In this document: one piece after another, positions 20,581 to 64,000 of the stretch
Numbering within the stretch: the first letter of the stretch is position 1
Layout of the letters: the number at the start of each line of letters is the position of its first letter
NCBI RefSeq assembly: GCF_050920415.1
Contig: NZ_CP169309.1
Source of the DNA: Escherichia coli
GTDB taxonomy: Bacteria; Pseudomonadota; Gammaproteobacteria; Enterobacterales; Enterobacteriaceae
Strand: one strand, 5' to 3'
DNA length: 64,000 nucleotides
The notes under the pieces: model-generated
The model's input: only the letters and a program-made list of their open reading frames with translations
What the model was told of the DNA's origin: nothing
The model's database searches: none
Translations under genes and position numbers: made by a program

Positions 20581-21963
20581 TTATCCCACCAGCATCCAGG
20601 TCGCCGGAACTGAGGCAATTAACAGCATGCCAATCAGCACCATTTCCTGACGATTCAGTACATTATCATGTGTATGCGTTTTACGCGCGTACAGGAAGAC
20701 CAGTAGCCCTGGCGCATACAGAACGACGGACAACAGCAGATGCATTGGACCAGAGGCGTACAATAACCATAAGCCATAAATGCAGGCACCGACACCTACC
20801 GCCTTATGCAGTGGACGGGTTGCGATTTTCAGTAAGAACGCGCCGACCAGGAAATAGGGCACCAGAATCATTTCTGAGGCGATGGTCAGCAATGTGTTGT
20901 AATCGGAACCGGTCAGCCAGATGAGCACCAGACAAATTTGCACGCAGATGTTGGTCAGCCACAGTGAGGCGGATGGCGCGGCTTGTGCGTTCTGGCGCGC
21001 AAAAATGCGCGGGAATGCTTTATGGGTGGCTGCCAGGAACGGAACTTCTGCCGCCATGATGGTCCAGCTTAAGTACGCACCGCAAACGGAAACGATCAAA
21101 CCGGCAGCGATGATGATTTCGCCCCACGGTCCCATCATTTCCACCATCAGACCGGCCATTGACGGGTTACGAATTTCAGCCAGTTCAGGACGTGCTACCA
21201 CGCCCAGCGAAAGCAGCGTTACCAGCAAGTAAACGCCCAGAGCGGAGAGAACCGCCAGCAGTGTTGCTTTACCTACATCACGTTTATTACGCGCACGCGC
21301 CGAAACGACCACAGCACCTTCCACACCAATGAAAACCCACAGGGTGATCAGCATGGTGTTTTTCACCTGTTCCCATACCGGTACGCCAAGTGCAAGGCCA
21401 GTAAAGTCGAGCTTGAAGGTGTCCAGTTTGAACATCATCATCGCCAGCACAATAAACAGGCCCAGCGGCAACAATTTTGCCAGTGTCGCCACCAGGTTAA
21501 TGCTGGCAGCGGTTTGTACCCCGCGCAGGATCAAAAAGTGAACAATCCACAATAAAGCCGAGGCACCGACGATCGATTGCCAGGTATTGCCATCGCCAAA
21601 CAGACGCAATTCCGGCGTGTCCGTAAAAAAGCTTAACGCGGAAAAAACGATCACCAGATAGGAGACGTTGGCGATAACCGCGCACAGCCAGTACCCCCAT
21701 GCGGAACAAAAGCCGATTAACTCACCAAACCCTTCGCGGGCATAGGTAAAGATGCCGCCGTCAAGCTCGGGGCGAATGCGTGTGAGGATCAGCATGGCAA
21801 AGGCCAGCAATAAAATGCCAGCACCAGTAATGCTCCAGCCGATGAGCAGTGCTGCCGGGCTGGCAACTGCCGCCATATTTTGCGGCAGACTGAAAACACC
21901 CGCGCCCAGCATTGAGCTTAATACCAGCGCGGTGAGTGCGCTCAGTCCCAGTTTCTTTTCCAT
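20581..21963 (-). CDS. ydgI: APC-family putative arginine/ornithine antiporter YdgI (460 aa)
   Basis: 12-TM amino-acid transporter-like sequence; length and neighbourhood match ydgI. Confidence 0.85.
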   Translation of the reverse strand: MEKKLGLSALTALVLSSMLGAGVFSLPQNMAAVASPAALLIGWSITGAGILLLAFAMLILTRIRPELDGGIFTYAREGFGELIGFCSAWGYWLCAVIANVSYLVIVFSALSFFTDTPELRLFGDGNTWQSIVGASALLWIVHFLILRGVQTAASINLVATLAKLLPLGLFIVLAMMMFKLDTFKLDFTGLALGVPVWEQVKNTMLITLWVFIGVEGAVVVSARARNKRDVGKATLLAVLSALGVYLLVTLLSLGVVARPELAEIRNPSMAGLMVEMMGPWGEIIIAAGLIVSVCGAYLSWTIMAAEVPFLAATHKAFPRIFARQNAQAAPSASLWLTNICVQICLVLIWLTGSDYNTLLTIASEMILVPYFLVGAFLLKIATRPLHKAVGVGACIYGLWLLYASGPMHLLLSVVLYAPGLLVFLYARKTHTHDNVLNRQEMVLIGMLLIASVPATWMLVG

Positions 21964-30566: not shown

Positions 30567-31820
30567 TTAGGCGTGCAGACGACGATGCAAACGCGTCCCG
30601 ACCAGCAGAGCAATGACCAGCATCAGAGCAATAAATGCGCCGACGCCGTTCCAGCCATAGTTATGCCAGAAAACACCACCCAGCGTCCCGGCAATACTCG
30701 ACCCCAAATAGTAACTGAACAGATACAGCGAGGAGGCCTGGCCTTTAGCGCGTTTTGCGCGGGGGCCGATCCAGCTGCTGGCAACGGAGTGGGCTGCGAA
30801 GAATCCGGCTGAGAAGAGTAACATTCCGGCAAAGATTAGCCACAGCGAGCTGAATAAGGTCATCAGTAAACCAAACAGCATAACCCCCGTCGAAAACAAC
30901 ATCACCGGACCGCGCCCATAACGGGTGGTCATGGTTCCGGCTTTGGGTGAGCTCCATGTACCGGTCAAATAAGCCAGCGATAATAAGCCAACCACGGCCT
31001 GACTGACATGCCAGGGGGAAAGCATCAACCTATAGCCGATGTAATTAAACAGCGTGACGAACGACCCCATCAGCAAAAAGCCTTCTGCGAACAATAACGG
31101 CAATCCCCGGTCACGCCAGTGCAGACGAAAGTTGATAAATAACGTCTTTGGTCGCAGGGAAGTCGGGCGAAAATGGCGTGATTCCGGGAGGATTTTCCAG
31201 AACATCAACGCCGAGGCCAGCGCGAAACAGCCGATAGCCGCCAGAGCAATTCGCCAGTTGAAAAAGTCCGTGAAGACACCGCTAATTAAGCGTCCGCTCA
31301 TGCCGCCAATTGAGTTGCCGCTGATATACAACCCCATCGAAAAGGCCACGAAACTGGGGTGGATTTCCTCGCTAAGATAAGTCATGCCAACAGCTGCCAC
31401 GCCACTTAACGAAAGCCCAATCAAGGCGCGCATAATCAAAATGCCGTGCCAGCTGGTCATCATTGTCGAAAGTAACGTACAAATGGAGGCCAACAGTAGC
31501 GCCGTGACCATCACTGGTTTGCGACCAATGGCATCGGATAGCGGGCCAGTAAACAGCAAACCGATAGCCAACATCGCCGTTGAAATGGACAGTGAAATAC
31601 TACTGTTCGCAGGCGTTAAGCCAAACTCCTGCGAAAGCACCGGAAGGATAGGTTGCACACAATAGAGAAGTGCGAAGGTTGCCAGTCCGGCAGAGAAAAG
31701 CGCCAGGGTGACGCGCATAAATTGCGGCGTACCGCGTTTAATAAATTGATTTGGCTGAGAAATGCTTTGCTTGTCAGTGACGCTTGCCGGAGCGCCATCA
31801 ACAGTTGTAGTACGGCTCAC
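30567..31820 (-). CDS. ynfM: MFS transporter YnfM (417 aa)
   Basis: GTG start; 12-TM MFS topology; position between asr and ynfL. Confidence 0.88.
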   Translation of the reverse strand: MSRTTTVDGAPASVTDKQSISQPNQFIKRGTPQFMRVTLALFSAGLATFALLYCVQPILPVLSQEFGLTPANSSISLSISTAMLAIGLLFTGPLSDAIGRKPVMVTALLLASICTLLSTMMTSWHGILIMRALIGLSLSGVAAVGMTYLSEEIHPSFVAFSMGLYISGNSIGGMSGRLISGVFTDFFNWRIALAAIGCFALASALMFWKILPESRHFRPTSLRPKTLFINFRLHWRDRGLPLLFAEGFLLMGSFVTLFNYIGYRLMLSPWHVSQAVVGLLSLAYLTGTWSSPKAGTMTTRYGRGPVMLFSTGVMLFGLLMTLFSSLWLIFAGMLLFSAGFFAAHSVASSWIGPRAKRAKGQASSLYLFSYYLGSSIAGTLGGVFWHNYGWNGVGAFIALMLVIALLVGTRLHRRLHA

Positions 31821-41018: not shown

Positions 41019-43206
41019 TTATATTTTTTCGATCTCGACCAGATTAGTGTGCTGCGGGTTTCCCTTCGCCAGTGGTGAAGGGCGCAGAGTGGTTAGCGTA
41101 TTCACACAGCCGCCGTGGTCGATTTTATCGCCAGACATATTGGCCTCGTGCCAGGCTCCCTGGCCCATAGCGCTAACTCCAGGGAGAATGCGTGGTGTCA
41201 CTTTGGCTGGTAGCCGAACTTCGCCACGATGGTTAAACACCCGCACCATATCGCCGTTGGCAATCCCACGTTTCTGTGCATCTATAGGGTTGATCCACAC
41301 TTCCTGACGGCAGGCTGCCTTCAGGACATCAATGTTGCCGTAGGTCGAGTGAGTACGAGATTTGTAATGGAAACCAAACAGTTGTAGCGGGAAGGTACTA
41401 CGTTCAGGGGCGTCCCAGCCTTCGAAGGTTGAGGCATAAACCGGCAGTGGGCTTATTACTTCATCTTTTTCGAGTTCCCAGGTACGGGCAATTTCCGCCA
41501 GTTTGCTGGAATAAATTTCGATCTTACCGGAAGGCGTTTTAAGTGGATTTGTCTCGGGGTCGTCACGAAATGCTTTGTAGGCGATAAAATGACCATTAGG
41601 ATCCTTACGCTTATAGATACCCATTTTTTTCAGTTCGTCGTAAGACGGTAATGCCGGATCTTTGGCAAGCATTTTGGCGTACAGATGTTGTAACCATTGT
41701 TCCTGAGTGCGGCCTTCAGTGAATTTTTGATAGACGTCAGGGCCAAGACGTTTCGCGACTTCACTTAGGATCCAGTAAATCGGTTTGCGTTCGAATTTTT
41801 CGCTGGTGACTGGCTGGAGGAAAATGAGATATCCCATGTTACCGGCGTAATCGTTAGGAATAATATCTTCCTGCTCAACGGTCATCAGGTCTGGCAGCAG
41901 AATGTCGGCATATTTTGCCGATGAGGTCATAAAGTTTTCGATGACCACAATCATTTCGCATTTCGATTCGTCCTGCAGAATTTCATGCGTTTTGTTAATG
42001 TCAGAATGCTGATTAACCAGGGTATTTCCCGCGTAGTTCCAGATGAACTTAATGGGCACATCCAGTTTATCTTTGCCGCGGACGCCGTCGCGGATTGCCG
42101 TCATTTGCGGGCCATGATCGATAGCATCCGTCCAGCTGAAGCAGGAGATTGATGTTTTGACCGGATTATCCAGCACCGGCAGGCGTTCTATGGTAATGGT
42201 ATAGGTGGATTCACGCGCGCCACTATTTCCGCCGCTGATGCCGACATTGCCCGTCAGAATAGGCAACATCGCAATAGCGCGTGCGGTCAGCTCACCGTTT
42301 GCCTGGCGTTGCGGTCCCCAACCCTGGCAGATATAAGCGGGTTTTGCTGTGCCGATTTCACGCGCCAGTTTGATGATACGGTCCACCGGGATACCGGTAA
42401 TTTGCGAAGCCCACTGCGGCGTTTTCGCTGTGTTATCATCACCTTCACCAAGAATATAGGCTTTATAGTGGCCATTTTTTGGTGCATCTGCGGGTAAGGT
42501 TTTTTCGTCATAACCGACGCAGTATTTATCGAGAAAAGGTTGATCAACGAGATTTTCGTTAATCAATGCCATCATTACTGCCGTAGGTGTAGGGCATGGC
42601 ACAGGAAATTTGCGCGGTGCTGTAGGAGCCATACTGGTTGAGTGAACCGCCGTAGCAGTTCATCAGGCGTTTGACCGCCGAGGCTGATGGCGAAGAGCGG
42701 GTCATATTGCCGCCAACGATCCCCGAAGAGTACTGAATATATACAGCCTCATTGCCATATTGTTCGACGGTTTTTTTCAGACTACTGGCGATAGTATCCA
42801 GGGCTTCATCCCAGCTAATCCGTTCGAATTTGCCTTCGCCGCGTTTGCCCACGCGTTTCATTGGGTAATTCAAGCGATCGGGATGATTAATACGCCGACG
42901 GATGGACCGACCGCGCAAACAGGCGCGTACTTGATGATTGCCATACTCGTCGCTGCCGGTGTTGTCAGTTTCCACCCAGGTGACTTCATTATCTTTAACA
43001 TGTAGACGAAGTGCACAGCGGCTACCACAGTTGACGGAACAGGCACCCCAGACCACTTTTTCGCTGGCCTGTTGTACCGCTGCCGCTGCACTGCGCAGGG
43101 TGAACGGTAAAGAAAAACCGCCTGCAGCCAGCGCCAGAGAACCTATCGCGGTAGATTTAACGAGTGTTCTGCGGCTGATGCCCACCATTTGTTCATTTTT
43201 GGACAT
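41019..43206 (-). pseudogene. ynfE: ynfE (DmsA paralogue) disrupted: N-terminal 215-codon ORF (42559..43206) and C-terminal 537-codon ORF (41019..42632) lie in different frames; about 80 codons are missing at the junction
   Basis: N-terminal ORF has Tat signal and Cys cluster and ends ...YGSNDGID-stop. C-terminal ORF resumes at ...LINENLVDQPFLDKYCVGYDEK. The intact paralogue ynfF in this same window has 80 residues between the equivalent NDG and LITENMVDQ. Confidence 0.75.
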
Positions 43207-56137: not shown

Positions 56138-56962
56138 ATGAGCAGCAAGCTTCATGGTCTTGTCTGGGAAGGGTGCGCCTTCACCGGCATGATCTTATCC
56201 AGGGTGGCAGTAATGGCTCGCCTTGCAGACTACAGCAATGACGAAGGTGTGTCATGGCCTGCAGTGGAGACCATTCGTCGTCAGATTGGGGCAAAGAGTG
56301 AATCAACGGTTAAAGCGGCGATAGCGGAACTGGAAAAGAACGGCTGGCTGACGAAGGAGGAGCGTAAGGTCGGTGGGCGTAATGAAAGCAATATCTACCG
56401 CCTTAATGTGGAAAAACTCGAAGCAGCAGCTGAGGCGGCGCGTGAGGCATATAAACCGAAAAGAAAAATTAGCCCGGCAAAAAATGACCCGTTAACAGTT
56501 GACCAGTCAAATATTGCCCCCTCAACGGTTGACCCGTCAAATTTTGATGGATCAACCGTTGGTAAAAAACAGCCGGTTAGGGGGGCGATGGTTGGCCCCG
56601 ATCCGTCAGTATTAAAACCTGATCCGTCAGATAAAAGATCTTTTCGTCCGGAAGCTTCGCAACCGGACCCGCAGACGGCTGAACAGGATTTTTTAACCCG
56701 ACATCCTGATGCGGTTGTGTTTAGTGCAAAAAAACGTCAGTGGGGAACTCAGGAGGATTTGGCATGCGCACAGTGGATCTGGGGGCGAATCGTGAGTCTT
56801 TACGAACAGGCCGCCAGCGATGATGGCGAGATCACCCGACCGAAAGAACCCAACTGGACAGCATGGGCCAATGACGTGCGCATAATGCGGATGCTGGATG
56901 GCAGAACTCACAGACAAATCTGTGAACCGCCCCGGGTTTCCTGGAGAGTGTTTTATCTGTGA
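56138..56962 (+). pseudogene. Phage replication-initiator (O-like, N-terminal winged-HTH) gene, 5' part; interrupted by an IS element after codon 261
   Basis: N-terminus ...AVMARLADYSNDEGVSWPAVETIRRQIGAKSESTVKAAIAELEKNGWL is typical of phage replisome-organiser proteins. The frame ends inside the IS inverted repeat; the original frame resumes at 58235 and stops at 58414. Confidence 0.65.
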
Positions 56963-56964
56963 AC

Positions 56965-57831
56965 TCAGGCTGCCAGATCATTGTTTCCGATGGAAGCATA
57001 ATAAGCTTTTTCTGCTTCTGCCGGAGGAGTATGGCCCAGCCTTCCCAGCAATCGTCGATTGTTATACCAGTCCACCCACGTGAGTGTGGCCAGTTCCACT
57101 TCTGCACGGTTTTTCCAGCTCTTACGGTGTATTACCTCCGCTTTGTAAAGACCATTGATGCTCTCAGCCATCGCGTTGTCATACGAGTCGCCTGTACTCC
57201 CTGTTGATGCCAGCAGTTTTGCTTCTTTTAGTCGCTCCGTATAGGCCAGTGACACATACTGAGAGCCTTTATCGCTGTGATGGATGGTGCCAGACGGACG
57301 ACGGGCCCACAACGCCTGCTCCAGCGCATCCAGCACGAATGTCGTTTCCATAGACGATGAGACCCGCCACCCCACGATGTATCCGGCAAACACATCAATG
57401 ATGAACGCCACATAGACGAAGCCCTGCCATGTGCTGACGTAAGTAAAATCAGCCACCCACAGCTGGTCAGGACGTTCTGCCACGAACTGACGGTTTACGC
57501 GGTCACCTGTGGCAACGGTTTTCCGGCTGACGGTAGTGCGGACCTTTTTACCCCGGAGAACACCGGCAAGTCCCATAACCGCCATGAGGCGCGCCACTGT
57601 ACATCTGGCCACCCTGATTCCTTCCCGTAACAACTGACGCCAGACTTTACGCACACCGTACACCTGATGATTTTCATCGTATACGCGCTGTATCTCTCTC
57701 TTCAGCCAGTCATCGCGCTGCGCACGGGCACTGCGTTTATCAGGATGATGCCGCTGCTGCTGACAATGGTAATACGTTGACGGGGCAATATGCAGTTCAC
57801 TGCATACCGGTCCGACCCCCGTACTGCTCAC
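56965..57831 (-). CDS. IS3-family transposase OrfB (DDE integrase core)
   Basis: DDE core ...LWVADFTYVSTWQGFVYVAFIIDVFAGYIVGW...HHSDKGSQY...DSYDNAMAESINGLYKAE. In this copy the body is in the same frame as orfA rather than the -1 frame. Confidence 0.85.
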   Translation of the reverse strand: MSSTGVGPVCSELHIAPSTYYHCQQQRHHPDKRSARAQRDDWLKREIQRVYDENHQVYGVRKVWRQLLREGIRVARCTVARLMAVMGLAGVLRGKKVRTTVSRKTVATGDRVNRQFVAERPDQLWVADFTYVSTWQGFVYVAFIIDVFAGYIVGWRVSSSMETTFVLDALEQALWARRPSGTIHHSDKGSQYVSLAYTERLKEAKLLASTGSTGDSYDNAMAESINGLYKAEVIHRKSWKNRAEVELATLTWVDWYNNRRLLGRLGHTPPAEAEKAYYASIGNNDLAA

Positions 57832-57852
57832 GCAGCTTATCCAGCAGTGGCA

Positions 57853-58179
57853 TTATTTTTTCCAGAGGCGGTCGAACTCCGCCTTCGCAAAATAAGCGGA
57901 AGCCTGGCGAAGGATATCGTTACTGCGGCGCAGTTCACGATTTTCACGTTCCAGCTCTTTCAGACGCTGACGTTCAGCGGTGGTGAGCCCACCATCACCG
58001 CTCCCGGTATCCCTCTCATGCTGGCGAACCCAGACACGCAGAGTCTCTGGCGTACAGCCAATCTTTGGAGCAATGGAACAAATTGCCGCCCATTGTGAGT
58101 CATATTCGCCCTGACTTTCCAGAACCATACGAACTGCGCGTTGACGGACTTCGGGGGAAAAACGAGTATTTTTAGTCAT
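57853..58179 (-). CDS. IS3-family transposase OrfA (HTH plus leucine zipper), 108 aa
   Basis: [57 protein letters not shown]...; ends WKK-stop at an A-rich run. Confidence 0.85.
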
Positions 58180-58234
58180 CCTGTTTACCTCTTTCTCAGG
58201 AAGTTTAGTCTCCAGGATTTCCGGGGCGGTTCAC

Positions 58235-58414
58235 TGCGAAATGTTTGGTCGGGTACAGCGGGATCCATTCTGGGTAAAAAACATCATGAGCCCGTCAAAA
58301 CTTCGCGATAAATGGGATGAGCTGGTTATCCGTCTGGGGCGTTCGCCTGTACAGCGTTGTGTGAATCATATTTCTGAACCTGACACCGAAATTCCACCAG
58401 GGTTCAGGGGGTAG
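58235..58414 (+). other. 3' remnant (59 codons) of the IS-interrupted phage replication gene
   Basis: Joining 56138..56922 to 58237.. (removing the IS and one CTG copy) restores a continuous frame ...RQICEMFGRVQRDPFWVKNIMSPSKLRDKWDELVIRLG... ending at TAG 58412-58414. Confidence 0.6.
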
Positions 58415-58454
58415 GTATTGATTTCAGATCATGAGGTAATTTTCAGGAGGACTT

Positions 58455-58877
58455 GTGGCAAAAGTTTTTACACAAGAAGAGCGGGAAAAAATTAAGGGAC
58501 AGGTTGTTGCACTCGTACGCCAGAGTGGGCGCGAGACGTTACGACAGCTGGAAGCTAAAACAGGTGCGACAAGATATCTGATTAGCGTTCTTGCCTGGGA
58601 GCTGGTTGCCAGTGGCGATGTATACAACTCTGGCTATGGGTTATTCCCGTCAGAACAGGCTCGTAAGGACTGGCAAAACGCCCGCAAAAAACTATCGAGG
58701 GCAAAGGGGAAGAAACCGTCTATGGTTGATCCGGACCTTATCTGGTCATTACCTGACGGAGAAATTCGTCGCTACGATAGTCGCCATAACATGGTTTGTC
58801 GCGAGTGTCTGGAAAGTGAAGTAATGCAGCGAGTGTTGGCATTTTATCAGGGAAATGTTCGCTATTTATTGAAGTGA
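58455..58877 (+). CDS. Hypothetical prophage protein (140 aa)
   Basis: GTG-start ORF after the replication gene; no recognisable family. Confidence 0.4.
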   Translation: MAKVFTQEEREKIKGQVVALVRQSGRETLRQLEAKTGATRYLISVLAWELVASGDVYNSGYGLFPSEQARKDWQNARKKLSRAKGKKPSMVDPDLIWSLPDGEIRRYDSRHNMVCRECLESEVMQRVLAFYQGNVRYLLK

Positions 58878-59341
58878 CGAGATTAAAGAGCATTAATACA
58901 TATGTGAATTGACATTTCTGTGGCACAGGGCTAGAACTATTCTCATTGTCAGCGTTGTGCCAGAGTCTGATGTTTGTTGTACATTTGGACGAATAGACGG
59001 CGTTGTTAACTTTAAAAATAACACAGGAACACTTTGAGAAAGTGAACAGGCGTATTTATTTTTTGCTGATGAAGGAGAGTAACTTTAATTTGGGTAATTA
59101 GATTGATAATAGGCCAGACGAAAATAACATTCTGGCACACTTTTGGTCGCTACAGTCATTAGTTAATTTTAAGTGATAAATTTTTATCCATAAGTTAACA
59201 CTAGTGTGTCATCTAGCGAAACCGAATCGCTTTAATCCATAACTTAAAGTTGAATCAGTGGGGTAGCAGTAGGTATGCCGGAACTGATAAACTGTGCAGA
59301 AGGCTAAACATTCATTCACTCGTGAGATAGTAGCATAAATT

Positions 59342-59686
59342 ATGCAAAGAATTATTCCTGATAAAAATTGGTGGGAAAAAGAGCGTATTAATCGTAAAGC
59401 ATCATCAAAATGCCCATATGCTAGTTCATACAGATGTCCTCGGTACTATCAGAGTGTAGTTTTGCTCTCAAGCATCAATATGATAGCTGGTATGGCAACT
59501 AGGAAAGAAAAAGAGTTGGGCGAATTTGGGGAAAGAACTAGTTTCTCATATTTATGTGATGAAGAAGTCCCAACAGTTACTACAAAAGAATATGGCGGCC
59601 TTGCATCAGTTAGTAATTTTTGCCCAGAAATATCATTTAGATATTTACACTATTACGCCGATTATATGTGTAAATATGTTGATTAG
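59342..59686 (+). CDS. Hypothetical Cys-rich small protein (114 aa) in the AT-rich cargo island
   Basis: ORF in AT-rich DNA, 70 bp upstream of the HEPN-like gene on the same strand; several Cys in CP/CD contexts; weak RBS. Confidence 0.35.
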   Translation: MQRIIPDKNWWEKERINRKASSKCPYASSYRCPRYYQSVVLLSSINMIAGMATRKEKELGEFGERTSFSYLCDEEVPTVTTKEYGGLASVSNFCPEISFRYLHYYADYMCKYVD

Positions 59687-59755
59687 ATAGATCAGGATAC
59701 TGGCAGGCGTAGTGCGGAAAAAGATAATTTAGAAAATGATTGGAAATATACATGG

Positions 59756-60208
59756 ATGTCAGTCAATCCTAAATTTTATTTAGATTGCGATGTTTTTGAA
59801 AGTGTCAAAAACTTCAATGAAGAATTGGCTAGTGATTACTTAAAGAGATTGCATCCAAATATCATTCAGCAAATAGATAGAATGAATAATTGCTTGGATA
59901 ATAATGACCCTGCGGGTGCACTGCACGCAGCCTCTAATATTCTAGAAACTATGGCGAAGGAAATCACTCAAAACCCGAATGTGGCAAATGAGTCATTGGG
60001 TGGTTTTTTTAAACAGTTCGAAAAAATGTCAAAATTACCTAAGAATCTTATTGATATTGTTAAAGATATTTATGATTTACGCAACAAACTACCTACTGCT
60101 GGACACGGAAGCTTGAACAGGCCTGAATTAACTATGGTAGAAGCTATAACTATTGCGGCAATGACAAAGGCGATTTTAGAAATTGAATATCGAAGCAAAG
60201 CCATCTAA
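59756..60208 (+). CDS. Abi_C / HEPN-like abortive-infection-type protein (150 aa)
   Basis: C-terminal motif DLRNKLPTAGHGSLNRPE fits the R-N-x(n)-H-G signature of Abi_C/HEPN domains; AT-rich codon usage. Confidence 0.4.
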   Translation: MSVNPKFYLDCDVFESVKNFNEELASDYLKRLHPNIIQQIDRMNNCLDNNDPAGALHAASNILETMAKEITQNPNVANESLGGFFKQFEKMSKLPKNLIDIVKDIYDLRNKLPTAGHGSLNRPELTMVEAITIAAMTKAILEIEYRSKAI

Positions 60209-60702
60209 CAAACATAAATTATGTGGTTCAAATTCCCGCTATACTTCTGTGTTATTGCCGCCAGCGTCTACTTATCGCTGTGAGTTCAACGGGGCGATGA
60301 TGCGTTAGAGATCTCTGAATCGATTGAAGTCTAAGGTTGTCAGGGCTGTAACAGTAGCCCTGTGTCATGAAAGGATTGCATATTAATTAACGAAGAACAG
60401 ACCAATAGCATTGATAGTTGTTTTCAAAAATAGACCAATAACAAACACGACTGGCCATCTCATCGATTTTCGACAGTATGCAGAAATGGGCGGGATCCAC
60501 ACGCAGTACCAGCTTGCTAAGATAAACGAAAAGGAGACTTTAACCAGTCAGTGGCTGCATGCTGATGGTGATCCGCTATGGGCCGTAGATGTTGTTTGAT
60601 GTACGCAGAAAGAGACGACGAAGGGCACTATGCCGAAAACTAAATCGGTTTTAGAGATTAACCGCGCTGGTGAGCTGGAGTGATTGACTTTTAGAACGCC
60701 AG

Positions 60703-60732
60703 AAAGCAAAAACCTCACAATCGAGTGAGGTT
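60703..60732 (-). terminator. Candidate terminator after the kinase-partner operon (AACCTCAC-loop-GTGAGGTT)
   Basis: Perfect 8-bp stem; U-rich flank on the minus strand; lies 15 bp downstream of the 208-aa gene stop. Confidence 0.45.
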
Positions 60733-60746
60733 TTGTTAAGGGCTTA

Positions 60747-61373
60747 CTATTTTTTGGCAATTAGTGCATGCATCGCCATTTCATGACCTTTTCTGCGAAG
60801 TTTTTTCACACGGGGCTTGAGCCTAGTGAAAGAACTTGGGCTAATTGTCGACTCAGCTTCAACTATATCATTGCGGGGAGCACCCGTTTTAGCATCTTCA
60901 TAGCGGATAAGTATTTTAAACGTGCCCTCATCAACTCCGACACCTTGCAAGTGATGAAGTTTAGATGAAACAGCACCGATTAAATAATCATGAATTCCTT
61001 GCAGGCCCGTTTTACCGATTGGTGAATAGGTATGCAACATATTTGCACCTACAGGAAGGAACTGGCGAAAGTCAGGAACATGCATCTTGTTAACTTCAAC
61101 AGAAGTGTATGCTTTCATGTCAAAAGAAACTCCAGGTTTCCGTGCATTGACTTCTAGCCATTGAGGCAAATCGAGAATATATTTGCTCTCAGCAGTTACT
61201 TCCAGTTTCTTCCTAGACGATAATGTCACGTCCATTACCTGAGCCATATCAGCCATAGAAAGCTCAGCGGCCTTCCGGTTGATGGCTTGTACCCGCTCGC
61301 TCACGTTAGGTCCGAATGCATCGAACAACGAAATTTCAGCAGCTGGTTTAATGGCTTCAGTTTTAACAGACAT
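60747..61373 (-). CDS. Hypothetical protein (208 aa), translationally coupled partner of the P-loop kinase
   Basis: AAGGAG Shine-Dalgarno 5-6 nt upstream of ATG 61371-61373, directly after the kinase stop; no family recognised (track ORF starts at GTG 61379). Confidence 0.5.
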   Translation of the reverse strand: MSVKTEAIKPAAEISLFDAFGPNVSERVQAINRKAAELSMADMAQVMDVTLSSRKKLEVTAESKYILDLPQWLEVNARKPGVSFDMKAYTSVEVNKMHVPDFRQFLPVGANMLHTYSPIGKTGLQGIHDYLIGAVSSKLHHLQGVGVDEGTFKILIRYEDAKTGAPRNDIVEAESTISPSSFTRLKPRVKKLRRKGHEMAMHALIAKK

Positions 61374-61398
61374 ATACACTCCTTAGATAGGACACTTA

Positions 61399-62097
61399 TT
61401 ATACACCTAAATGCGCTAGATCGCTAACGTCTGAATATGGGCAGCTATGGGAGGTAGTCCAGTTTTCAAGGGTCACGTTAGGAGTATAGTCGACCACGAA
61501 CTGACCATCATTTTCAGGATCTTCCCGTCGATGATAAACATTGAGTGTAAATAGGCCTGCATATTTCGCGAGCATATGTTCAATGGTCTCTCTGCTCTTG
61601 AAAAAGTTCGCTTTAAGAACCTCTAACGGAACCTTACGAGAGCGGGCTTGGGCAAAAACCCACGCGTAAGCCGGATCAAAATAGACGTAATTCAGTGCTA
61701 CCTGATAACCAGCCTTCAGGGCCAGATCAAAGTTTCTCTCCGCAATACCTATACTGGAGAAAGTAGAGTCCATAACAATGGGATAGCCTTCAGATAGCGC
61801 TTTTTTGTAGATAAAATCGACCATTCTGGAGGCAGGTCTCTGATAGTCCACAGAGTTCTCTTCATTGTAGTAGGGGAACCACCAGCGAAAATCATCAGCA
61901 TCAATTCGAACAATGTTTGTGATGCCATGTTGTTCTAAAAGACGATTTAAGAGCTCGGTTTTACCTGCAGCAGGCGAACCAGCCATAAACAGGACGTGCT
62001 TGGCATTGGCATTTTTGTTTGCTGTTACGTAACTATAAACGTAAGGGCGAATTGCCTCACCAAACTCAGGCAGTATGGTTTCAAGTTCTTTTTTCAT
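61399..62097 (-). CDS. P-loop kinase of the zeta-toxin / polynucleotide-kinase superfamily (232 aa)
   Basis: Walker A MAGSPAAGKTEL followed by IVRIDADDFR (compare zeta toxin GGQPGSGKTS...VIVIDNDTFK and T4 Pnk GCPGSGKST...NRDDYR), then IVMDSTFSS and ALKAGYQVALNYVYFDP. Confidence 0.55.
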   Translation of the reverse strand: MKKELETILPEFGEAIRPYVYSYVTANKNANAKHVLFMAGSPAAGKTELLNRLLEQHGITNIVRIDADDFRWWFPYYNEENSVDYQRPASRMVDFIYKKALSEGYPIVMDSTFSSIGIAERNFDLALKAGYQVALNYVYFDPAYAWVFAQARSRKVPLEVLKANFFKSRETIEHMLAKYAGLFTLNVYHRREDPENDGQFVVDYTPNVTLENWTTSHSCPYSDVSDLAHLGV

Positions 62098-62261
62098 CGG
62101 TAAATCATGCCGTGGTAGTTTTAGTTTTATTTAACAATATCATAAACGTTTAAAGATGGTTACAAATTAGCTAGATTTGTGAGCGCTTTAACCTCTAAAA
62201 CCCTCTGGAACCCAATACCGCTTTTCTGGCTGTCTTTTCAATACGGCATCCAGCGCATCAC

Positions 62262-62600
62262 TTACTCGGTCTGTATGCGGTTCATTGCTGAAGTCGCCAG
62301 TTGCGGGTAAATCTGCATCTCTGCGCCGTTTAAGATTCGCGTATTTACGCGCAAGCGCTCGATGGCTTCATTTTGCTGGTGGCTTTCCTTCCTCGCGGCT
62401 ATTCTAGCTATCTGATTGGCTGCTATGGCCTTTGCCGCTGTCATGGAATGCGCCAGAGTCTTATCCGTCATCATTACACGCTGCGTTTCCAGCATGCTGG
62501 AATGATCTCTTTTTGTTGTTCTTGAAGAAGAACTCTTATTCTTCGGTATATCATTTTGACAGGGGGCAGTGTAAGTATCCCTGCAAAACGAACCATTCAC
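62262..62600 (-). CDS. Hypothetical small protein (77-112 aa), upstream of the kinase operon
   Basis: ORF with possible internal start MLETQRVMMTDKTLAHSMTAAKAIAANQIARIAARKE...; helical and basic; 164 bp upstream of the kinase gene. Confidence 0.3.
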   Translation of the reverse strand: MNGSFCRDTYTAPCQNDIPKNKSSSSRTTKRDHSSMLETQRVMMTDKTLAHSMTAAKAIAANQIARIAARKESHQQNEAIERLRVNTRILNGAEMQIYPQLATSAMNRIQTE

Positions 62601-62821
62601 TTTAACAGATATGTCAATTTCCGCTCATCGTTCAAAGCGGACTAGAAGGTTAGCTTGCGTCGGACTTGGCGTTTTTAAAGAAGTGCTGGTGGTGACTGGT
62701 TGTTGTGTTCCATTTCTACAGAACAAAATCACAGAAACTATTCCCAATAGTTTTATTGAATCAATGATGAGACAGCCTCATATTTATCAGGACTGGTGTA
62801 CGTCCAATACAGGAGGTTGTC

Positions 62822-62911
62822 GTGCTGGTTCTCAAATGTGCGCTCGCTATTGCGGCTGTAATGGCAATTTATTGTCTTGCTGTTGTTCTTATGGATCGCC
62901 TTTCTGATTGA
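62822..62911 (+). CDS. 29-aa hydrophobic peptide (MLVLKCALAIAAVMAIYCLAVVLMDRLSD) with perfect Shine-Dalgarno; candidate small membrane/type-I-toxin-like peptide
   Basis: AGGAGG at 62811-62816, 5-nt spacer, GTG start at 62822; single predicted TM helix with polar tail; 210 bp upstream of hok. Confidence 0.4.
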   Translation: MLVLKCALAIAAVMAIYCLAVVLMDRLSD

Positions 62912-63122
62912 TTTTATATTGGCGAGGTGACGGGAGTTAAGTAGGATTGCTGCGGGTGCTTGAGGCTATCTGTCTCAGGCATGAATACCAACGGCAGATA
63001 GAGAAAAGCCCCAGTTAACATTACGCGTCCTGCAAGACGCCTAACATTAATCTGAGGCCATATCTATGACTTGCACACGTAGGTTAGCCTCTTACGTGCC
63101 GAAAGGCAAGGAGAAGCAGGCT

Positions 63123-63353
63123 ATGAAGCAGCATAAGGCGATGTTAATCGCCCTGATTGTCATCTGTTTAACTGTCATTGTGACGGCACTGGTAACGAGG
63201 AAAGATCTCTGTGAGGTACGAATCCGAACCAGCCAAACGGAGGTCGCTGTCTTCACAGCTTACGAACCTGAGGAGTTAGAGACCAGGCGAGGGAGAAATC
63301 CCTCGCCACCTCTGATGAGTCAGGCATCCTCAATGCACCCACACTTAACTTGA
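63123..63353 (+). CDS. Hok/Gef-family type I toxin homologue with a 25-codon C-terminal extension (76 codons to the first stop)
   Basis: MKQHKAMLIALIVICLTVIVTALVTRKDLCEVRIRTSQTEVAVFTAYEPEE aligns with Hok (...[24 protein letters not shown]...). After ...EPEE the next codon is TTA (Leu) and the frame runs to 63353. Confidence 0.75.
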   Translation: MKQHKAMLIALIVICLTVIVTALVTRKDLCEVRIRTSQTEVAVFTAYEPEELETRRGRNPSPPLMSQASSMHPHLT

Positions 63354-63737
63354 TTCGGCGGGTTTATTTTATCTGTAAATATTTTTATAAAAATAATGCC
63401 CACACACAGCATAAAACAAAAAGTATCACAGATAAAAAAGGAGCGTAATGTGCAGATTTGTTGTTTTCCATATTTACTCGCTTTAACATAATCAATATTG
63501 ATATGGTTGTTATTTCGGTGGTTTCAAACGAGATATTATGGTGATCTGGCAAATTTGCATAACATTAAAATTTAATTTATCTAATCGCTTTTAATAATAA
63601 GCGTTGTGTTTTATCCCAGCAATCTGTTGTTTGATTTTTATTTCATTAATGTAGGGGCTTTACACTGGAACCAGTTTATTTATACTTTATACGCCAGCCT
63701 GAACAACTGGCACCTGCTGCGCCAGCAGAGACAACCG

Positions 63738-64000
63738 ATGGCGCACGATACCAAATTACACAATTCTGATGATTCTGCCGTCTTTGCCAGCAGGTGCGGA
63801 CGGCGTTTTCACGCATTCAAATCGGACTGGTTCCAGCATTCTCCATGCACTGAAGAACAGGCTGAATGGTTAATTCATTGCTACCGCAGACGCGGATACG
63901 AGATTAAGAAAGCCCTCAGCCCCGATTATCGTCACTGGATAATCTACGTCAGGCTTCCTTATTCCGAACGCCCACCGCGTCAGTCCCGCACATTCCAGCA
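63738..64000 (+). CDS. Partial ORF (at least 87 codons, runs off the window end), hypothetical
   Basis: ATG at 63738 opens MAHDTKLHNSDDSAVFASRCGRRFHAFKSDWFQHSPCTEEQAEWLIHCYRRRGYEIKK... with no stop before the window end; not in the ORF track. Confidence 0.3.
   Translation, partial: MAHDTKLHNSDDSAVFASRCGRRFHAFKSDWFQHSPCTEEQAEWLIHCYRRRGYEIKKALSPDYRHWIIYVRLPYSERPPRQSRTFQ

Follow-up and report, generated by a model that had tools for sequence, protein, structure and literature searches.

An IS629/IS1203-type insertion sequence in an Escherichia coli prophage gene with orfB in the frame of orfA: a one-base expansion of a G run, or a miscall

In elements of the IS3 family the transposase, OrfAB, is made only if ribosomes translating orfA slip back by one base into orfB. 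In IS629 there are reportedly two such -1 shift sites, TTTTG and AAAAT, which Chen & Hu are said to have described in 2006. The slippage is stimulated by the ALIL pseudoknot, for which a spacing of 44-104 nt between stem-loop 1 and stem-loop 2 has been given (PMC5009743, summarising Mazauric et al. 2008). With respect to the products, excision in the IS1203v/IS629 system goes up when OrfAB is supplied and down with OrfA by itself (bioRxiv 10.1101/2023.06.07.543989), while the OrfB of IS629 has been reported to lower transposition (PMC5771124). In O157:H7, 62% of the IS629 copies are located within prophages (PMC3271280), and the element that we describe here, found in a window of 64,000 nucleotides of an Escherichia coli genome (contig NZ_CP169309.1), is likewise in a prophage. 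It is an ordinary IS3-family element of the IS629/IS1203 type, inserted into a prophage gene; it is a member of the family by descent, and this particular copy is either mutated or misread. The kind of feature is already known: one copy, among many of a very common insertion sequence, that a frameshift has inactivated or that has been misread.

A minus-strand reading of positions 56400-58600, together with the listing of open reading frames, delimits a complete insertion sequence of 1311 bp (Table 1). Terminal inverted repeats of the TG...CA type are present at both ends, and the motif TGAACCGCCCCGG, the perfect part of these repeats, has two matches in the whole window, at the two ends of the element and in inverted orientation, where 0.08 would be expected by chance. 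In strain MFDS1022581 the site is empty, the two flanks being contiguous with a single CTG between them. Sequences are counted by ISfinder as isoforms when they have at least 95% DNA identity to a named reference; the copies annotated as IS629 (in Stx phages) or IS1203 (in RefSeq) have approximately 97% DNA identity to this element, which is therefore probably an isoform of the IS629/IS1203/IS3411 group.

Table 1. Features of the insertion sequence and of the interrupted prophage gene (positions in the window)
Feature	Position	Strand	Basis and remarks
5' part of interrupted prophage HTH_36 (replication-type) gene	56138-56922	+	PF13730; intact homologue in MFDS1022581
Target-site duplication, copy 1 (3 bp, CTG on plus strand)	56920-56922		Flank sequences and empty site in MFDS1022581
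IS3-family insertion sequence, IS629/IS1203 type	56923-58233	-	1311 bp, against 1310 bp in intact copies
Right terminal inverted repeat, perfect 13-nt part	56923-56935	+	Motif search of window
Transposase catalytic body (HTH_21 + rve DDE core), 288-aa ORF, now in the frame of orfA	56965-57831	-	Three-frame translation
Predicted ALIL frameshift-stimulating pseudoknot	57781-57898	-	Rfam RF01497, 114 bits (gathering score 50), E = 1.9e-30
TGA ending the -1 frame in this copy	57797-57799	-	Three-frame translation
Predicted ALIL stem-loop 2 internal loop UCGGAC, directly 3' of the G run	57810-57815	-	Partner of stem-loop 1 apical loop
G5 run (G4 in intact copies), holding the one-base insertion; 5' arm of predicted stem-loop 2 basal stem	57816-57820	-	Sequence and alignment
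orfA, 108 aa, intact, HTH_Tnp_1 domain	57853-58179	-	ORF listing and three-frame translation; PF01527, 48 bits, E = 1.4e-12
AAAAAAT, A6 run overlapping the orfA stop; second candidate -1 shift site, giving ...WKK-IMPLL...	57855-57861	-	Position and frames
Predicted ALIL stem-loop 1 (GGCGG-AGUUCGA-CCGCC)	57867-57883	-	Rfam match and sequence
TTTTG, first candidate -1 shift site; stem-loop 1 follows after 5 nt	57888-57892	-	Position from sequence
Left terminal inverted repeat, perfect 13-nt part, TGAACCGCCCCGG	58221-58233	-	Motif search of window
Target-site duplication, copy 2 (3 bp, CTG)	58234-58236		Flank sequences and empty site in MFDS1022581
3' remainder of interrupted prophage gene (first 3 bases are the duplicated CTG)	58234-58414	+	Comparison with MFDS1022581

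The gene that was hit belongs to a lambdoid prophage integrated next to rspB, among neighbours encoding Cro/CI, a YdaT-family toxin and DUF977. It is an HTH_36 (replication-initiator-like) gene of 320 aa, broken at about codon 262, and its intact form in MFDS1022581 is WP_001349596.1 (positions 20739-21701 of the MFDS1022581 stretch compared). Within the interrupted gene there are two copies, 30 bp apart, of the palindromic motif TTGACNGGTCAAC (56498-56510 and 56528-56540). Such a pair is only weakly above chance, since 4 of 100 shuffles reach two, and by analogy it appears reminiscent of the origin iterons in lambda O-type genes.

In none of the complete RefSeq E. coli genomes is this prophage site occupied by an insertion sequence, and neither among these genomes nor by exact-protein look-ups was a second assembly with this insertion found. 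The O111:H8 and Indian isolates seemed to be colinear, but their IS1203 lies elsewhere, downstream of DUF977 or of hok genes. Exact-protein look-ups with the 288-aa frame-0 ORF and with the 274-aa product in which the prophage gene runs on into the end of the element found neither on record, and the same look-up with the 57-aa downstream remnant returned one 2-kb metagenome contig (ENA ERZ27257960 k141_28071). This contig begins at the first base of the remnant ORF (contig positions 1-174) and has a different neighbour gene, DUF1627, so that it carries no information about the G run. Its start may be a break at an insertion sequence located nearby in a related prophage, or it may be coincidental.

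Considering that the family depends on a programmed -1 frameshift, the arrangement of the reading frames in this copy is the central observation. The intact orfA ends in ...FDRLWKK followed by the TAA at 57855-57853. In three-frame translations made by script, orfB is absent from its usual -1 frame and is found instead in frame 0, which reads WKK*CHCWISCVSSTGVGPVCSELH... and has this one stop alone, with none further between 57855 and 56965. The 288-aa ORF that starts at the first in-frame GTG after the TAA (57831) carries the catalytic domains: PF00665 (rve) with 95 bits and E = 3.4e-27, PF13276 with 64 bits, and also rve_3 and rve_2. The -1 frame is open from 57919, reads through ...REQYGGRTGMQ and stops at the TGA 57799-57797. 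The original prediction, made from the letters of the window, had said as much, namely that the -1 frame runs into an early stop and that the DDE body is in frame 0, separated from orfA by a single TAA, and the translations bear it out on both points. It had further proposed that five G stand where four would keep orfB continuous, and in fact the deletion in silico of one G restores a 295-aa orfB in the -1 frame and, with it, a 404-aa OrfAB fusion that matches the NCBIfam transpos_IS3 model over positions 1-369 of 369 (365 bits, with a cutoff of 160). The plus-strand motif that it gave for the run, ACCCCCG, is also correct, but it lies at 57815-57821, one base away from the position originally assigned, about 57814-57820. 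Both of the shift sites reported for IS629 have their counterparts upstream of the G run, and thus the fusion products arising from either of them would be truncated.

The region spanning the end of orfA and the G run is a predicted -1 frameshift stimulator, on the strength of a covariance-model match and of loop complementarity. It is like the ALIL family (RF01497) both in matching the model over its full length (positions 1-117 of 117) and in having a first stem-loop whose apical loop is complementary to the internal loop of the second; it is unlike it in the extra G, the sole insertion with respect to the model, which falls in stem-loop 2 where the basal stem meets the internal loop. Read by eye, the apical loop GUUCGA (57877-57872) can form six of six pairs, one of them a G.U, with UCGGAC (57815-57810). 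The letters of this interaction differ from the Rfam consensus (GUUCGA/UCGGAC here, GCUCGA/UCGAGC there), with one pair changed on both sides, from C-G to U-A, and one that is now a U.G wobble, such that the pairing is kept. Stem-loop 2 begins 45 nt after stem-loop 1, which fits the published range of spacings, and its basal stem consists of CGGGG paired with CCCCG, the G run forming the 5' arm. The predicted folding energy of stem-loop 2 is -18.6 kcal/mol with G5 and -18.9 kcal/mol with G4, the internal loop growing from 6 to 7 nt. We have therefore rejected the idea that the extra G acts mainly by weakening the frameshift stimulator: because the predicted stability is the same with either run length, the stimulator is probably little affected and the damage would be to the reading frame rather than to the RNA.

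To place this copy among its relatives, we have employed both the whole element and the immediate surroundings of the G run as queries. Of 5,426 complete E. coli genomes, 4,250 contain matches to the whole element, at 31,011 places in all, and the best of these matches are 1310 bp long with 99.9% identity. A base-for-base alignment of the element with the copy on plasmid p1RM9088 of strain RM9088 gives 1310 identities in 1310 positions and a single gap, which lies in the G run. The plasmid copy has G4; in its PGAP annotation it is an "IS3 family transposase, programmed frameshift", and the corresponding region is marked as an "AL1L pseudoknot". With one added G as all that sets the element apart from an annotated intact copy, the unusual frame arrangement is not a chance pattern. 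The original prediction would have fallen with a reference copy that itself had G5 and orfB in frame 0. The plasmid copy has instead G4 and a -1 programmed frameshift, and the two alternatives of the prediction, a copy defective in transposition or a sequencing error in the homopolymer, are supported by intact copies that are 1310 bp long and have G4.

The rarity of the longer run was assessed with a 73-nt stretch centred on it, a match that spans 72 nt being one with G4. No exact G5 copy was found in complete E. coli genomes (4882 matching records, 20,166 places), in plasmids (2285 matching records) or in phages (169 matching records), and a G5 30-mer was found neither in viral contigs nor in metagenome contigs; the corresponding G4 29-mer is present in 101 stretches of the viral contigs. 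Counting E. coli genomes, plasmids and phages together, approximately 25,000 places with a match were covered, in addition to the two contig scans. Among the best places listed, all but one span 72 nt, and the sole exception is a G5 copy with one substitution elsewhere in strain PNUSAE008406 (NZ_CP104647.1, N5921_RS21190), annotated by PGAP as a "frameshifted" pseudogene with an ALIL feature. In this copy the corresponding run has likewise grown from G4 to G5; however, at the start of orfB the copy is of the subtype ATGCCGCTG, whereas the window element has ATGCCACTG, and it occupies another genomic site. With a different subtype at a different site, the G5 of PNUSAE008406 must be either an independent event or an independent error. 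The change is therefore on record at least once before, and a standard annotation pipeline treats such a copy as a pseudogene.

The quality of the assembly around the element can be judged from its close relative. Positions 35400-56926 align with MFDS1022581 over 21,527 bp with 3 mismatches and no gaps, and positions 58234-64000 are identical over 5,767 bp; the aligned flanks thus total 27.3 kb at 99.99% identity, or approximately one difference per 9,000 bases. Homopolymer runs of at least five number 155 in the gap-free stretch, and 19 of these are G/C runs. Against K-12, with approximately 49 kb aligned, not one gene has a one-base homopolymer frameshift. A generally indel-prone assembly, which would have been a simple explanation for the extra G, is rejected for the flanks on these two grounds. 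The differences from K-12 do include a 4-bp deletion in ynfG (at approximately 37958), a deletion of approximately 236 bp in ynfE (at approximately 42567-42570) and some intergenic indels. The two deletions are common to MFDS1022581, where PGAP calls both genes "frameshifted", which indicates that this operon of selenate/DMSO-reductase paralogues has decayed in the lineage.

How then did the fifth G arise? We put at roughly 0.5 the probability that replication slippage has genuinely lengthened the run by one base, from G4 to G5, in an IS629-type element of recent insertion, so that this copy is unable to make its own transposase. The other serious contender, to which we would give somewhat short of an even chance, is that a homopolymer error of sequencing or polishing has crept into an element that truly has 1310 bp, G4 and a working programmed frameshift. 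As between mutation and miscall, the odds are about even, with a slight leaning to a real mutation. A miscall would readily account for the fact that the sole difference from the intact copies is a one-base change in the length of a G run, and for the lack of any exact G5 match among the E. coli genomes, plasmids and phages as well as in the viral and metagenome contigs, against the many G4 stretches in the viral ones. It would also suit an element that has no other mutation and that inserted recently, the site being empty in a strain whose flanks are 99.99% identical, with little time for decay. A multi-copy insertion sequence is, moreover, the worst place for the short-read polishing of a long-read assembly, and the errors that remain there are typically one-base homopolymer indels. 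Against a miscall, the surrounding assembly has no indel with respect to MFDS1022581 at any of the 155 runs of at least five, the indels seen against K-12 (4 bp, approximately 236 bp and intergenic) are not frameshifts of the miscall type, and homopolymer errors more commonly take other forms than an added base in a run of just four. The same absence of indels from the flanks, by showing that the assembly is not generally indel-prone, favours a real change, and the G4 to G5 copy of the other IS629 subtype in PNUSAE008406 provides a precedent for one. Against a real change, the evidence for the extra G is a single sequence. Furthermore, with no substitution relative to the other copies and a divergence of approximately one per 9,000 bases in the flanks, a real mutation in 1.3 kb is not to be expected either; the insertion being recent, neither a mutation nor an error would be expected a priori.

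There are also ways in which a G5 copy might still yield a full-length transposase, namely read-through of the TAA, a -1 shift that a +1 re-shift on GGG_G undoes ahead of the TGA, or a reversible switch by slippage in the G run. What speaks for such decoding is that one stop alone separates orfA from the DDE body (57855 to 56965), that the G run is situated inside the window of 19 codons between the A6 shift site and the TGA, and that the change has been recorded at least twice, here and in PNUSAE008406. However, there is no known read-through or +1 signal, the run is only five G long, and the fusion in frame 0 would exchange the conserved linker for CHCWISCVSST. As for a maintained switch, G5 is the best match in just 1 of the 4882 E. 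coli records and in 0 plasmid and 0 phage records, which is the reverse of what should be expected. We therefore consider unconventional decoding very improbable. Still more far-fetched is the specific notion of the G run in ALIL as a contingency site that would toggle copies between an autonomous G4 state and a G5 state making OrfA only, as a repressor, or else of G5 copies that obtain transposase by way of a -1 shift and then a +1 shift on GGG_G.

If the one-base expansion is real, what this copy produces, and its loss of transposition, can be inferred from its layout. The candidate slip sites and the predicted ALIL stimulator are intact, with the extra G downstream of both slip sites, so ribosomes should still shift; they would then meet the TGA after 19 more codons in the -1 frame, counted from the A6 site, while the DDE body would remain in frame 0 behind the TAA of orfA. 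The expected products would be a normal OrfA, a shortened OrfA extension devoid of the catalytic domain and, at most, a little free OrfB-like protein. Translation of the DDE body would have to begin at the GTG at 57831, where no Shine-Dalgarno sequence is evident, or depend on infrequent read-through of the TAA. Given that OrfA lowers excision and that OrfB is reported to lower transposition, we predict that the G5 copy is non-autonomous and that any effect on its relatives would be to damp them. Its intact ends would still allow mobilisation in trans, and a reversion from G5 to G4 could restore its function.

Beyond annotation, the case has little significance. Were the G real, the genome would contain a non-autonomous IS629-type copy that still expresses a predicted OrfA, and this would bear only on counts of active insertion sequences, or on the predicted IS-driven instability or IEE-mediated excision in the strain. 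Were it an artefact, there would be one residual homopolymer error in a repeat, and for annotation the gene would be a normal programmed-frameshift transposase. Either way, the interrupted prophage replication-type gene remains broken.

The element may also be compared with the systems closest to it. From the unnamed "IS3 family transposase" copies of RM9088, UTAK-1 and the OkiPb strains it is distinguished by one G and is otherwise identical. With the wider IS629/IS1203/IS3411 group of E. coli, Shigella and Stx phages it shares the ends, the 3-bp target duplication, the 108-aa orfA, the DDE orfB and the ALIL frameshift region, but it has 1311 bp rather than 1310 bp and, with orfB in frame 0 instead of the -1 frame, its programmed frameshift leads to a premature stop. 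The IS911/IS3 model comes from other subgroups of the IS3 family; by analogy with it, we predict that here too the OrfAB fusion alone would be the transposase, with OrfA and OrfB by themselves acting as modulators or inhibitors.
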